8,882 nucleotides of DNA, taken from a virus (Duplodnaviria; Heunggongvirae; Uroviricota; Caudoviricetes). Below the pieces are notes generated by a model, which saw nothing but the letters and a program-made list of their open reading frames with translations, had not been told where the DNA came from and ran no database searches. Location: IMG/VR virus record IMGVR_UViG_2534681772_000013; one strand, 5' to 3'. A program made the position numbers and the translations under genes. This document shows positions 56-8,882 of this stretch, in pieces. Each line of letters begins with the position of its first letter. The stretch's first letter is position 1.

Positions 56-83
56 TGAAAAGAAAAAAGGCCGCAGAGCGGCC
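56..83 (-). terminator. Putative intrinsic terminator ending the minus-strand cassette (possibly bidirectional)
   Basis: Perfect 6-bp GC stem GGCCGC(69-74)/GCGGCC(78-83) with 3-nt loop; on the minus strand it is followed by a U-run (plus-strand A-run 56-68). It lies about 110 nt downstream of the stop of the 193..747 gene. Confidence 0.5.
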
Positions 84-192: not shown

Positions 193-747
193 TCAGCCAA
201 CAAATTTAGCAACAAATACAGCAACCGCCGCCGTGAAAATGGTTGTGCATACTGGCACAATAATGCCACTCCAACGCCACTTCGTATTATCATCAACCTT
301 GTCAAACCGCCGATTCATCTCATCCATAATCTTGTCAAAGCGTTTATCCATCGCTTCGGTAAGCTCACCCTTCAGGCTGTTAATGTCTGATTTGAGCTGC
401 TCTTTCAGGTGAGCTGTATCAGATTTAAGCTCACCTTTCAGATTCGCAATATCGCATTTAAGATCACCTTTCAGATGAGCAATGTCTGCTTTGAGCTCAC
501 CTTTCACCTCACCAACATCGGCTTTGGTTGAGAGGTTTGTAGTGCGTTCAGCAAGCGTCGCAAGGTCGTTTCTTGTTAGCGATAAATCACTTTCGAGTCG
601 CTCAATTCGCCTTTCAAGTTTATCTGACATTCCACCTCCACTACTGCCGCCATCGCCGCCATGATAAAGCACATCACGCTCAGAATGCGACATACTACCT
701 GCTGAATTACCGAAAAGGTTTCTTGCTACATTACCCATTTTCACCAT
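193..747 (-). CDS. Coiled-coil protein with Gly/Ser-rich N-terminal linker, five hendecad repeats (LKGELKxDIAx) and a single C-terminal transmembrane anchor; function unknown
   Basis: 184-aa ORF from the track. Residues 81-135 form five 11-residue repeats; the C-terminus WRWSGIIVPVCTTIFTAAVAVFVAKFVG is a hydrophobic helix. An internal ATG at 736-738 has an AGGA 8 nt upstream and may be the true start. The start overlaps the stop of the upstream zinc-ribbon gene, suggesting translational coupling. Confidence 0.6.
   Translation of the reverse strand: MVKMGNVARNLFGNSAGSMSHSERDVLYHGGDGGSSGGGMSDKLERRIERLESDLSLTRNDLATLAERTTNLSTKADVGEVKGELKADIAHLKGDLKCDIANLKGELKSDTAHLKEQLKSDINSLKGELTEAMDKRFDKIMDEMNRRFDKVDDNTKWRWSGIIVPVCTTIFTAAVAVFVAKFVG
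343..507. repeat. Five tandem copies of an approximately 33-bp unit encoding the hendecad repeats of the coiled-coil protein
   Basis: Recurring motif visible in the DNA (gagctcacctttcag / gatttaagctcacctttcag / atttaagatcacctttcag) at about 33-bp spacing, matching protein repeats VKGELKADIAH-LKGDLKCDIAN-LKGELKSDTAH-LKEQLKSDINS-LKGELTEAMDK. Confidence 0.6.
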
Positions 748-1093
748 CCTGTGCTTTGTCTTTCTCCAACCACTTCAGCACCGCAGACGTACGGTAAAGG
801 CTCAGGTAACCACAATTCAGGCAATGCAGCGTGTAATAAGTTTTGCGCATATCAGGTATGCTCTTAACATCACCCAAAAAAGTATAAGATACATAATGCT
901 TTATGTTCTCTTTAATTAACTCACTCTGCTCCTCCAAGGGTAGATTGTTAAAATTTTCTGGTTTCTTATTTTTATCCCAGCAAAGATCCATACTTTCAGG
1001 CACAGATAATCGAGACGATCCACATGAAGGGCAGACACTGGAAACCCCCTTCTCAGACAAGAAACGGAAGAAGATTTCTGGCGTAATCTCCAT
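731..1093 (-). CDS. Small zinc-ribbon protein (CPSCG ... CLNCGY), AT-rich, function unknown
   Basis: The track gives 731..1126 (131 aa). The internal ATG at 1091-1093 (MEITPEIFF...) is preceded by a strong SD (TAAGGAGCGGCTG-ATG), whereas the ATG at 1126 has only a weak AAGAAG, so 1093 is preferred. Two CxxC pairs suggest a Zn ribbon. The region is markedly AT-rich compared with the integrase. Confidence 0.55.
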   Translation of the reverse strand: MEITPEIFFRFLSEKGVSSVCPSCGSSRLSVPESMDLCWDKNKKPENFNNLPLEEQSELIKENIKHYVSYTFLGDVKSIPDMRKTYYTLHCLNCGYLSLYRTSAVLKWLEKDKAQDGENG

Positions 1094-1232
1094 CAGCCGC
1101 TCCTTATGTTTATTGACACGACTCATCGACTTCTTATTGATTTCATCAGCTTCTTCTTTGCATTTATCTTCTATATATTTCGATAGTAAATAGTCATATA
1201 ACTCTTTTTTTGTAGGTTTTTTATTTCCATAG

Positions 1233-2210
1233 TTACATTCCTCCCAAGGGATTAAACCTCACCGCATCCTGCAGGTAATCCGGCGCAAGATGGGCATAAA
1301 TCATCGTTGTCTGAATCTTTGCGTGCCCCAGAATTTTCTGGAGCGTCAGAATATTGCCGCCGTTCATCATGAAATGACTGGCGAAGGTGTGGCGCAGCGC
1401 ATGAACAGCCTGGCCGTCAGGAACATCAGGTGCGACCGTTTTGATGACATCGCGAACCAATGGATAATCCAGCGTCGGAAACACCAGTTTCCCGCCCCGT
1501 TTTTTGATCTTTTCAAACAGGCTTTCAGAAATAGGAACGGTACGGTTTTTGCTGTTCTTCGTTTTTGAAAAAGTGATTCGACAATGAAGAACACGGCGCT
1601 GCTCCAGTGCCGCTACCTCGCCCCATCGCGCCCCGGTCGACAGAAGGATTTCGACAGCCAGCCGTTCATCGGGATTTTCAGCCAGTGCATCCAGCAACTG
1701 AACACATTCAGACTTACTCAGATATCCCATTTCGCGCTCGTTAACCTTCATTCCTTTAAGGCCTTGAACGGGGTTATCGTTAAGAAAATGGCCGGATGAG
1801 ATGAGTGCGGTAAACATCGCGCTTAACGCCCCAATCTCTCGATTAATGGTGCTGGGCTGTATCCCCTGCTCTATCCTGGACACACGCAGCTCGGTGAGCA
1901 TCGTTGTATTAAGTTTATGCACGCACGGGTCATCCATTGCCTCACTCAAGCGCAGCAATTTAAGGCGCGTGTTATGCCCTGACTTCATTAGCTGACCGTG
2001 GTATTTCCACCACAAGTCAATAAGCACTGACAGCGGACGGCGATCAATGGAGTTTCCTTTCCACTCATTGTTATGCTGTTGCGCCAGCACCCACCGCTCA
2101 TATAAAACTGCATCCGATTTCGTTTTAAATTTTTTACGAATGCGCTTGCCTTTGCGCCCCTCTGGACGCATGTCAAGAAGATAACCTCCCGGAATTGATT
2201 TTATGCTCAT
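1233..2210 (-). CDS. int: Tyrosine site-specific integrase, P2-family
   Basis: C-terminal catalytic signature HALRHTFASHFMMNGGNILTLQKILGHAKIQTTMIYAHLAPDY (R, H-x-x-R, Y) and an N-terminus MSIKSIPGGYLLDMRPEGRKGKRIRKKFKTKSDAV typical of P2-like integrases. The track ORF extends to 2360, but that extension overlaps the 3' end of the repressor gene in another frame; the ATG at 2208-2210 gives a 326-aa protein of the expected size. Confidence 0.9.
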   Translation of the reverse strand: MSIKSIPGGYLLDMRPEGRKGKRIRKKFKTKSDAVLYERWVLAQQHNNEWKGNSIDRRPLSVLIDLWWKYHGQLMKSGHNTRLKLLRLSEAMDDPCVHKLNTTMLTELRVSRIEQGIQPSTINREIGALSAMFTALISSGHFLNDNPVQGLKGMKVNEREMGYLSKSECVQLLDALAENPDERLAVEILLSTGARWGEVAALEQRRVLHCRITFSKTKNSKNRTVPISESLFEKIKKRGGKLVFPTLDYPLVRDVIKTVAPDVPDGQAVHALRHTFASHFMMNGGNILTLQKILGHAKIQTTMIYAHLAPDYLQDAVRFNPLGGM

Positions 2211-3608: not shown

Positions 3609-3619
3609 TGGATTTGCCC

Positions 3620-4525
3620 CTATATTTCCAGACATCTGTTATCACTTAACCCATTACAAGCCCGCTGCCGCAGATATTCCCGTGGCGAGCGATAACCCAG
3701 CGCACTATGCGGATGCCATTCGTTATAATGCTCGAACGCCTCTGCAAGGTTCTTTGCTGCCGTTAACCCGTCTGGTTTGGGCATGATACTGATGTAGTCA
3801 CGCTTTATCGTTTTCACGAAGCTCTCTGCTATTCCGTTACTCTCCGGACTCCGCACCGCCGTGTTCTTCGGTTCAAGTCCCAACATCCGGGCGAACTGGC
3901 GTGTTTCATTAGCCCGGTAGCATGAACCATTATCCGTCAGCCACTCCACTGGAGACGACGGAAGATCGTTGCCGAAGCGGCGTTCCACCGCTCCCAGCAT
4001 GACGTCCTGTACTGTTTCACTGTTGAAGCCGCCGGTAGTGACCGCCCAGTGCAGTGCCTCACGATCACAGCAGTCCAGCGCGAACGTGACACGCAGTCTC
4101 TCTCCGTTATCACAGCAGAACTCGAACCCGTCAGAGCACCATCGCTGATTGCTTTCTTTCACGGCCACTCTGCCTGTATGTGCCCGTTTCGATGGCGGTA
4201 CAGCAGGTTTTCGCTCAAGCAACAGCGCATTCTGGCGCATGATCCGGTAAACACGTTTGGCATTGATCGCAGGCATACCATCAAGTTCTGCCTGTCTGCG
4301 AAGCAGCGCCCATACCCGACGATAACCATACGTGGGCAGCTCTCCGATAACATGGTGTATACGGAGAAGCACATCCGTATCATCAGTGTGACGACTGCGG
4401 CGGCCATCCATCCAGTCATCGGTTCGTCTGAGAATGACGTGCAACTGCGCACGCGACACCCGGAGACAACGGCTGACTAAGCTTACTCCCCATCCCCGGG
4501 CAATAAGGGCGCGTGCGCTATCCAC
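3620..4525 (-). CDS. insD: IS2 transposase OrfB (DDE integrase domain)
   Basis: 301-aa translation matches IS2 InsD as recalled ([34 protein letters not shown] ... [14 protein letters not shown]). Confidence 0.93.
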
Positions 4526-4848
4526 TTTTTTGCCCGTCCATATTCAACGGCTTCTTTGAGGAGTTCATTTTCCATCGTTTTCTTGCCGAGCAGGCGCTGG
4601 AGTTCTTTAATCTGCTTCATGGCGGCAGCAAGTTCAGAGGCAGGAACAACCTGTTCTCCGGCGGCGACAGCAGTAAGACTTCCTTCCTGGTATTGCTTAC
4701 GCCAGAGAAATAACTGGCTGGCTGCTACACCATGTTGCCGGGCAACGAGGGAGACCGTCATCCCCGGTTCAAAGCTCTGCTGAACAATTGCGATCTTTTC
4801 CTGTGTGGTACGCCGTCTGCGTTTCTCCGGCCCTAAGACATCAATCAT
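4483..4848 (-). CDS. insC: IS2 transposase OrfA (HTH)
   Basis: Translation from the internal ATG at 4846-4848 is [56 protein letters not shown]... (121 aa). The track's longer 136-aa start lies in the IS2 terminal region and is not the native start. Confidence 0.9.
4506..4512 (-). other. IS2 programmed -1 ribosomal frameshift heptamer A-AAA-AAG (produces the InsCD fusion transposase)
   Basis: Minus-strand GCA-AAA-AAG-TGG in the insC frame, located in the insC/insD overlap, as is typical for the IS3 family. Confidence 0.7.
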
Positions 4849-4938
4849 CTGTTCTCCAATGACTAGTCTAAAAACTAGTATTAAGACTATCACTTATTTA
4901 AGTGATACTGGTTGTCTGGAGATTCAGGGGGGCAGTCT

Positions 4939-6027: not shown

Positions 6028-6290
6028 CCATTCTGGACTACATCGCTACTCATCCGGGGTGTAGCGGCGGAGAGATCGCCGCAGCACTGAATACCCCAAC
6101 CACAGCCATTAATGCTGAGTTACGCCGACTCTGGCGCGGCGGCTTAGTCATCAGAACAAACCGCAGCACAGGTGGTCGCGCTCGCAAAACAGGAGGCCAG
6201 GCTTCTTACCACGTAAACCCGATGCCGTTCGGGTGTAGCAATCCACTTACTCACATGTTTAACCAGCTACTGAAGGAAGCCAGAGCATGA
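6024..6290 (+). CDS. Small winged-helix-like DNA-binding protein
   Basis: 88-aa protein MTILDYIATHPGCSGGEIAAALNTPTTAINAELRRLWRGGLVIRTNRS... with a pattern typical of wHTH regulators; translationally coupled to both neighbours by ATGA overlaps. Confidence 0.55.
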   Translation: MTILDYIATHPGCSGGEIAAALNTPTTAINAELRRLWRGGLVIRTNRSTGGRARKTGGQASYHVNPMPFGCSNPLTHMFNQLLKEARA

Positions 6291-6577
6291 GCACCATCAA
6301 CCACCAGAAGCTACGCGAACTGGCATTTGCCCTGCAACGAATGGCAACGCCTCAAAAATTACTGGCATTTCGCGCAATGCTCTCGCCGTCTGCTGTGCTG
6401 GCACTGCTGAATGAGCTGGAGCACGCCAGAACCACGGCTCCTGCCATTCGCCTGACGCTCCATCATGAAATCGCTGATTTCTGCGCGACGTTGGAGGCGC
6501 CGGGCGAACCGGAAACGCCGGAAGCAATACAGCAAGAGCTGCTGCAACGCATTGACAAGGTTTTTGATTTTTTCTGA
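6287..6577 (+). CDS. Hypothetical protein, possibly Ead/Ea22-like
   Basis: 96-aa ORF with an ATGA start overlap. The motif SPSAVLALLNELEHARTTA resembles the conserved region of Ead/Ea22-like phage proteins as I recall it (weak). Confidence 0.5.
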   Translation: MSTINHQKLRELAFALQRMATPQKLLAFRAMLSPSAVLALLNELEHARTTAPAIRLTLHHEIADFCATLEAPGEPETPEAIQQELLQRIDKVFDFF

Positions 6578-6708
6578 ACCAGTAAGAAACCAGAACATGC
6601 ACACACAAAAAAAACCGCTTGCCATGCCGCAATCAGTCAGGTTACATTTCCGCTGCACCTCATAAAACGGGTGCCGGGATTTCCACCCCGCTGACAACTA
6701 CAGCGCAC

Positions 6709-7583: not shown

Positions 7584-8882
7584 ATGACGGCAGAGTACAT
7601 CAGGGACTGGCAACAACCGCGCCACGCAGTGGGGCGTGAAGGAACGGGGATCCCCGCTCCTGAATCCGCGCTTTCCTCCTGGCTGGATGCCTACCGGGCA
7701 GAGAACGAGCGCCGCCAGGAAATGGCTGATGCGGCGTTCTCCGCCACGCCGCTGGGCAACCTGATTAATAAAAGCCTGGACGCACAGGAAAAACAGGACA
7801 AAACCATCACACTGGCAGGAGACGCCAGAAAACAGGCACGCGGCGCGGTGGATGAAGCCATGGCCTCGCTGCGCCTGCTGCCGTCCTATCTGCGCGATCC
7901 GCTTATTCGCCACCTCTCCTTCCTTCGCAAAAAACAGGAAGCCGATCGCCGGAAAGGCAAAAAGAGCTGGCAGGCGGAACGCTATGCACGCGGAACCCTG
8001 CGCAAAATATTCGAACGTCTGGATCGCACTGACGGACGCTGGCTGACACCGGGTTATCGCTCCCTTGCCGGACGCGAACGCCTGGACGATTTGCTTTACC
8101 TGCCGCAGCTCAACAAACACCAGATACAGACGCTGGCCACCATGACGGCAGCGATGTTCAGCAGCACCTTCGAAAAACTCTGCGATGGCTTTGGCGCGAC
8201 TGATGGCGAACTGACCATGGATGTATCGCTGAAGGCGTATCAGATGCTGGCCCGCATGGCGTTACACCTGCACGCTATGCCTCCACATTATGACGCACTG
8301 ACAACAGATAAAGACCGGAGGAACGAACCGGACACAGAGCTGCTGCCGGGCGCAATCCTTCGCCTGACCTGTGCGGAATGGTGGAAACGCAAACTGTGGC
8401 TGTTACGTTGCGAGTGGAGAGAAGAACAACTCCGCGCCGCCTGTCTGGTTTCCAGAAAAACATCGCCCTATCTGAGCCAGGACGCGTTAAGCGAGTTTCG
8501 CGCACAGCGCGAGAAAACACGCGATTTCCTGAAAAGTTTCATGCTGGAAAACGAAGACGGGTTCACGATTGATCTCGAGACAGTGTATTACGCGGGAGTA
8601 AGTAACCCGGTTCACCGTAAGGCAGAAATGATGGCCACCATGAAGGGACTGGAACTTCTGGCCGAAGCCCGTGGCGACAGAGCGGTGTTTCTGACTGTCA
8701 CCTGCCCGTCAAAATACCACGCAACAACAGAGAACGGTCATCCGAATCCCAAATGGAACGGGGCCACCATGCGCGACTCCAGCGATTACCTGGTTAACAC
8801 GTTTTTTTGCGGCGGTCCGCAAGAAACTGAACCGCGACGGCCTGCGCTGGTATGGCATCCGCACGGTGGAGCCTCACCATGA
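7584..8882 (+). CDS. A: P2 gpA-family rolling-circle replication initiator, frameshifted at a T7 run and truncated by the window end
   Basis: The 432-aa frame-0 translation ends ...NTFFCGGPQETEPRRPALVWHPHGGASP. After the T-run 8811-8817 the +1 frame reads AAVRKKLNRDGLRWYGIRTVEPHH, which matches the conserved gpA-family motif as I recall it, and stays open to the window end. A T6 run would give one continuous ORF. Confidence 0.8.
   Translation: MTAEYIRDWQQPRHAVGREGTGIPAPESALSSWLDAYRAENERRQEMADAAFSATPLGNLINKSLDAQEKQDKTITLAGDARKQARGAVDEAMASLRLLPSYLRDPLIRHLSFLRKKQEADRRKGKKSWQAERYARGTLRKIFERLDRTDGRWLTPGYRSLAGRERLDDLLYLPQLNKHQIQTLATMTAAMFSSTFEKLCDGFGATDGELTMDVSLKAYQMLARMALHLHAMPPHYDALTTDKDRRNEPDTELLPGAILRLTCAEWWKRKLWLLRCEWREEQLRAACLVSRKTSPYLSQDALSEFRAQREKTRDFLKSFMLENEDGFTIDLETVYYAGVSNPVHRKAEMMATMKGLELLAEARGDRAVFLTVTCPSKYHATTENGHPNPKWNGATMRDSSDYLVNTFFCGGPQETEPRRPALVWHPHGGASP

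Follow-up and report, generated by a model that had tools for sequence, protein, structure and literature searches.

The closest described relatives of the locus studied here are genes annotated in RefSeq as encoding a 166-aa 'hypothetical protein' (WP_000403443.1 and WP_000403441.1), which occur in P2-like prophages beside btuC in E. coli, where they lie 2 nt after the integrase gene (int) and are followed by a DUF1640-like gene and btuC itself. At a greater distance, PHROG 4293, a group of phage proteins with a 124-position profile and no function attached, matches core residues 39-163 of the same product (E = 1.4e-22), with a profile that lacks the 35-40-residue N-terminal helix of this enterobacterial clade. 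The window (the whole 8,882-nt stretch of DNA analysed in this work) carries such a gene in the same place and with the same neighbors, identical to the RefSeq-annotated locus over 601 nt except for a single A (99.8%). Compared with WP_000403443.1, a run of seven A residues is shortened to six, and the annotated start is thereby out of frame; restoring the missing A yields a 166-aa protein equal to WP_000403443.1. The gene is already annotated in its intact form in RefSeq, and the case presented by the window is an ordinary one.

The genomic organization of the window is that of a P2-like (Peduoviridae-type) early region, including int, an HTH repressor, a divergent early operon and the gpA replication endonuclease. 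The corresponding domains were identified as Int_N and Phage_integrase with Pfam, and as HTH_3, DUF4761, DUF4754 and Phage_GPA on the source contig, together with the annotation of strain TW10590. An IS2 copy (orfA/orfB, 3609-4938, minus strand) lies within the prophage early operon, and this insertion is absent from the otherwise near-identical sequences of TW10590, GCA_000250315.2 and a further assembly (L057). The features of the int-proximal end of the window are listed in Table 1.

Table 1. Features surrounding the junction between int and the putative zinc-ribbon gene, in window coordinates.
Feature	Position	Strand	Basis or remark
Terminator-like hairpin GGCCGCTCTGCGGCC with T tract	69..83	-	Placed to end the putative int/zinc-ribbon/partner transcription unit
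Downstream partner gene, 181 aa, coiled-coil, DUF1640/CCDC90-like	193..738	-	
Zinc-ribbon gene, codons 6-166 and stop	731..1216	-	100% identity to WP_000403443.1 apart from the indel
Short out-of-frame ORF MEIKNLQKKSYMTIYYRNI, ending at a stop	1171..1230	-	Translation; opened by ATG 1230 in this allele
A_AAA_AAG heptamer	1204-1210 (feature 1204..1211)	-	Reads CA_A AAA AAG in the frame of ATG 1230
Second A run, A7	1205-1211	-	Sequence
First A run, A6 (A7 in intact copies)	1217..1222	-	Alignment and run-length counts; single-base frame-breaking contraction
True ATG of the 166-codon gene	1228..1230	-	Annotated CDS start in three relatives
Shine-Dalgarno sequence GGGAGGA	1239..1245	-	Within the final int codons; identical in 23 of 23 complete genomes
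P2-type tyrosine integrase gene (int)	1233..2210	-	Pfam Int_N 2e-28, Phage_integrase 4e-20; annotated phage integrase in relatives; 325-aa form per relatives' annotation, longest ORF reaches 2360

As called from the window, the putative zinc-ribbon gene is a 131-codon ORF running from an ATG at 1126-1124 to a stop at 733-731. In the same minus-strand frame, 44 stop-free codons (1127-1258) precede that ATG and overlap the 3' end of int (stop TAA, 1235-1233) by 26 nt, up to a bounding TGA at 1261-1259, giving the translation stop-GLIPWEECNYGNKKPTKKELYDYLLSKYIEDKCKEEADEINKKS-M. A preliminary description of this DNA had reported the frame as open for about 40 codons upstream of ATG 1126 and across the int stop, devoid of ATG, GTG and TTG and unusual for AT-rich DNA, and this account proved accurate. 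The open stretch has a G+C content of 29.5% and contains no in-frame start codon, the only near-starts being ATC, ATA and ATC. Because only 1.05% of 100,000 shuffled sequences were stop-free, and only 0.11% were both stop-free and start-free, this stretch is unlikely to have arisen by chance. The Shine-Dalgarno sequence that the description had assigned to a second internal ATG, at 1093-1091, is also present (AAGGAG at 1105-1100, with a 6-nt spacer).

A further ATG, at 1230-1228, had been overlooked in that description. It lies in another frame, 2 nt past the int stop and 9 nt after a GGAGG sequence (1244-1240), and it is the first start codon following an in-frame stop, used as the start in divergent homologues as well. 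In the window this ATG is out of frame with the remainder of the zinc-ribbon gene, which occupies the -1 frame relative to it, with the A6 and A7 runs (1222-1217 and 1211-1205) lying between the two. An uninterrupted ORF from the int-adjacent ATG is accordingly absent from the window, where the ATG 1230 frame reads ATG GAA ATA AAA AAC CTA CAA AAA AAG AGT ... TAG and closes after 19 codons.

A megablast search with positions 700-1300 of the window against 5,426 complete Escherichia coli genomes returned 23 full-length matches, 22 of which are one base longer than the query. The lone alignment gap falls in the first run, where the window has A6 and intact copies have A7. Over a 100-nt stretch comprising the 3' end of int, the ATG and both runs, every one of the 23 genomes matches the A7+A7 form at 100% identity. 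In strains SCU-176, O103:H2 12009 and TW10590, the locus is annotated as a 501-nt CDS (166 aa) starting 2 nt past int, in the order int, 166-aa gene, DUF1640-like gene and btuC. An untargeted exact-pattern scan of metagenome and IMG/VR contigs, with the length of either run left free, recovered the A7+A7 arrangement in 4 of 4 metagenome contigs and 15 of 16 IMG/VR contigs. Overall, 42 of the 43 untargeted copies are A7+A7 and contain a single ORF. The intact product begins MEIKKPTKKELYDYLLSKYIEDKCKEEADEINKKSMSRVNK..., and the upstream translation of the window corresponds to its residues 6-35. The alignment with intact homologues hence bears out one part of the suggestion made in the preliminary description, that the called ORF is a 5'-truncated version of a longer gene, since the N-terminal extension of the intact proteins matches the upstream translation residue for residue. 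The other part, that the gene was cut by integration or recombination, did not hold: the Shine-Dalgarno sequence and ATG 1230 are both present and the 5' end is collinear with the intact copies, with one A missing.

Conservation across more distant homologues shows the N-terminus to be genuine coding sequence. In a search over 5.8 billion proteins, the homologues with 45-63% identity, from Salmonella, Providencia and other E. coli, were all 160-166 aa long, with query coverage of 94-100%. The N-terminal segment (a MEIKxPTxxEL..KY helix) is conserved in 16 full-length homologues, and residues M1, P6, T7, L11, L15, L16, K18, Y19, E21 and N32 show little or no variation in the alignment. In the DNA of three divergent homologues, the gene begins at the same ATG, which lies 2 nt past int or overlaps it, and A runs are lacking at these positions. 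An AlphaFold model of the protein (mean pLDDT 83) presents residues 8-46 as one long helix (block-mean pLDDT 76-89) preceding the four-cysteine core. A profile search over 1.8 billion representatives found this N-terminal helix only in the close clade; distant relatives of 104-135 aa lack it and begin at approximately residue 40. The internal methionines encoded by ATG 1126 and ATG 1093 (Met36 at 1126-1124 and Met47 at 1093-1091) show no conservation in the homologue alignment, and every homologue of the clade begins with MEIK or MDxK, which tells against the proposal of an internal start at 1093. Homologues beginning at the position of 1093 or 1126 with unrelated upstream sequence were absent from this clade.

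Positions 731-1230 of the minus strand thus form one 166-codon gene starting at ATG 1230-1228. Its anatomy, the one-A indel and the conservation of the N-terminus are directly observed, and the anatomy is the same whether the loss of the A is artefactual or real. The predicted product, a small zinc-ribbon protein with four cysteines and a long helix at its N-terminus, is apparently prophage cargo, encoded immediately after int in a P2-like prophage whose insertion site adjoins btuC. The GGGAGGA sequence within the last int codons would serve ATG 1230, an arrangement that suggests translational coupling of the zinc-ribbon gene to int. With A6 in place of A7, ATG 1230 opens a 19-codon dead-end frame, and the remaining 161 codons are displaced to the -1 frame, where the first start codon is that of Met36; this displacement accounts for the start-less open frame. 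By comparison with intact copies, the missing A in the A7 run is the sole lesion in the gene.

The missing A is probably a homopolymer-length miscall in an older draft assembly, one that the living genome would not share. Over its full length of 8,882 bases, the window matches contig AIHG01000006.1 (draft GCA_000250335.2) at 100% identity and stops 43 nt short of the contig end; the AIH* series belongs to what we take to be a 2012 draft collection. With respect to the nearest complete genome, TW10590, the window differs over 7,555 aligned columns by four substitutions and five one-base homopolymer indels, besides the IS2 insertion. These indels affect 5 of 10 runs of at least seven bases and none of 117 runs of four to six bases, with changes in both directions, and they also truncate the C-repressor-like gene (95 versus 103 aa) and the gpA replication gene (432 aa). 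Sister assemblies (GCA_000250315.2 and the Logan contigs of SRR096909 and SRR096910) show no substitutions with respect to the window, only differences in homopolymer length. At the two A runs, the sister drafts read 7+6, 6+6 and 6+6, versus 6+7 in the window, and a run in gpA is T7, T6 and T5 in three near-identical sequences. Indels that are length-dependent, bidirectional and mutually inconsistent have the look of homopolymer miscalls. The indels of the window resemble pyrosequencing-type homopolymer errors in being single-base, bidirectional, length-dependent and confined to runs of at least seven bases, and in the inconsistency among assemblies of near-identical strains, the likeness being one of indel pattern. 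A sequencing miscall is favored because discordance is concentrated in long runs and far outstrips substitution, and because the sister drafts disagree at the same runs. The 3.9-kb chromosomal flank is identical to TW10590, and none of its three length-7 runs is discordant; this counts against a purely artefactual origin, although three runs are too few to separate error from real change.

A real A7-to-A6 slipped-strand contraction in this lineage, which would reduce the gene to a frameshift pseudogene within a decaying, IS2-bearing prophage, is possible, though we regard it as distinctly less likely than a miscall. At least nine recent assemblies (GCA_051816135.1, GCA_052705545.1 and GCA_054592055.1 among the newer ones with this allele) carry A6+A7 on a haplotype approximately 2% divergent from that of the window, and one (L016) carries A7+A8; the A6+A7 assemblies were reached through two annotated truncated proteins, that is, by a targeted look-up. 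Because A6+A7 and A7+A8 alleles are found in these newer assemblies, real slippage at the A runs must occur in nature. On the haplotype of the window itself, L057, a second and distinct assembly, shares both A6+A7 and the T7 run at 2554, and the IS2 element is inserted in the window copy only. Independent damage to the same gene is seen in the complete genome of E. coli O145 RM12367-C1, where a one-base C deletion at the equivalent of window position 875 truncates it; by this example, genuine loss of the zinc-ribbon gene does occur on occasion. A real contraction could leave a residual protein initiated at ATG 1093 (120 aa) or ATG 1126 (131 aa) with the whole zinc-ribbon core retained, and the existence of the 104-135-aa relatives without the N-terminal helix implies that such a truncated product could fold. 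Against a real contraction, however, half of the long homopolymers of the window are discordant with TW10590 for just four substitutions, clone-mate drafts with no substitutions differ among themselves at the same runs, and A6 is found in none of the 23 complete genomes carrying the gene.

It is highly unlikely that the runs form a functional arrangement, either as tandem tracts constituting an ON/OFF phase-variation switch or as an A6 allele decoded by -1 frameshifting or transcriptional slippage. The second run reads exactly A_AAA_AAG in the frame of ATG 1230, a -1 shift there would restore the long frame, and slippage on the heptamer at 1210-1204 would give MEIKNLQKK-ELYDY.... The heptamer is the same as that of the -1 sites of dnaX and of IS3-family elements (IS911, IS2), it is in phase and the required shift has the same direction; it also ranks among the three most shift-prone heptamers in E. 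coli, but when bare of a stimulator it yields only about 0.3% frameshifting (PMC4066793). In contrast to the dnaX and IS3-family sites, the window heptamer has neither a stimulator nor conservation. Neither a Shine-Dalgarno-like sequence approximately 10-14 nt upstream nor a stable structure 5-9 nt downstream was found at the heptamer: the sole Shine-Dalgarno sequence lies approximately 29 nt upstream, and folding of 1250-1130 gave -8.4 kcal/mol (z = 0.44). The two-frame layout with its heptamer is not conserved among homologues, given the plain single ORF of the 42 A7+A7 copies and the divergent homologues without A runs. Programmed frameshifting was rejected on these grounds, and the resemblance to a frameshift site is an accident of the one-base loss; at most, the heptamer would lend slight leakiness to the A6 allele, were that allele real.

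Several run-length alleles occur in public assemblies; the states recorded (6+7, 7+6, 6+6 and 7+8) come mostly from old drafts or from the search targeted at truncated proteins. Runs of seven bases are short for known contingency loci. That the two A7 runs in the first nine codons form a slippage hot spot switching the gene in nature, with A6+A7 as a common, leaky OFF allele, strikes us as very improbable; were it so, the leakiness would stem from the contraction itself, since this brings A_AAA_AAG into the phase in which a -1 ribosomal shift restores the frame.

The explanations offered in the preliminary description, a 5' end cut by integration or recombination or a natural internal start (at 1093, or likewise at 1126, the open frame upstream then being due to chance), are barely credible, for although gene callers choose ATG 1093 on frameshifted copies, and PHROG 4293 and the distant relatives of about 104-135 aa are similarly short, the whole 5' end with its Shine-Dalgarno sequence and ATG is collinear with intact copies minus one base, the N-terminal 35 residues are kept down to 45% identity, the int-to-gene junction is the same in Salmonella, and the open start-free stretch has a chance probability of approximately 0.1-1%.

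Four cysteines arranged in two CxxC pairs, C67 and C70 (1033-1031 and 1024-1022) and C137 and C140 (823-821 and 814-812), are invariant in the homologues and present in the window, and zinc binding by this protein is predicted from them. Searches with Pfam and NCBIfam returned only sub-threshold generic zinc-ribbon matches, and no significant match to the zinc-ribbon protein was obtained with PADLOC or in the PDB; likewise, tblastn against 50,697 phage records gave no match, and Foldseek against BFVD returned nothing at E <= 0.001. An overlapping coiled-coil gene is always located 3' of the zinc-ribbon gene. In E. coli it is DUF1640-like, and in the window its ATG overlaps the zinc-ribbon stop (ATGGGTAA at 738-731), whereas in Salmonella and Providencia the coiled-coil partner is 154 aa or 107 aa long. 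In E. coli and Salmonella, the zinc-ribbon/coiled-coil pair follows int and adjoins btuC; in a P2-like prophage of Providencia, its neighbors are ogr and gpD. No assignment of the pair to a known defence system or family was found. The pair resembles a two-gene cargo module of P2-like prophages and is probably transcribed together with int.

The main importance of these results lies in annotation, and they have no bearing on the biology of the conserved zinc-ribbon/coiled-coil pair. The deposited 120-aa and 131-aa 'proteins' (e.g., WP_000406875.1) would be artefacts produced by taking the first in-frame ATG past a homopolymer frameshift, the true product being 166 aa long and beginning beside the int stop. 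A record exists for the 120-aa product; none matches the 131-aa product exactly. Some of the truncated proteins deposited from alleles of the approximately 2%-divergent haplotype carry the label Shigella sonnei. More generally, when AT-rich DNA contains a long open frame lacking a start codon, an out-of-frame ATG with a homopolymer close by should be sought.

Several other sites in the window show features of the same kind. The IS2 copy in the early operon has its own in-phase A_AAA_AAG orfA/orfB site at 4531-4525, of the genuine type. At 2548-2554, the window has T7, against T8 in TW10590 and two further sequences; with T7, the C-repressor-like HTH gene has a displaced start and is called at 95 aa in place of 103 aa. 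The run at 8796-8802 is T7 in the window, T6 in TW10590 and T5 in L057; with T7, the gpA endonuclease is truncated at 432 aa, and the window ends exactly with the resulting stop codon. The two remaining discordances with TW10590 are T6 versus T7 at 6568-6573 and A8 versus A7 at 6607-6614, the former altering the C-terminus of a 96-aa ORF at 6287-6577.
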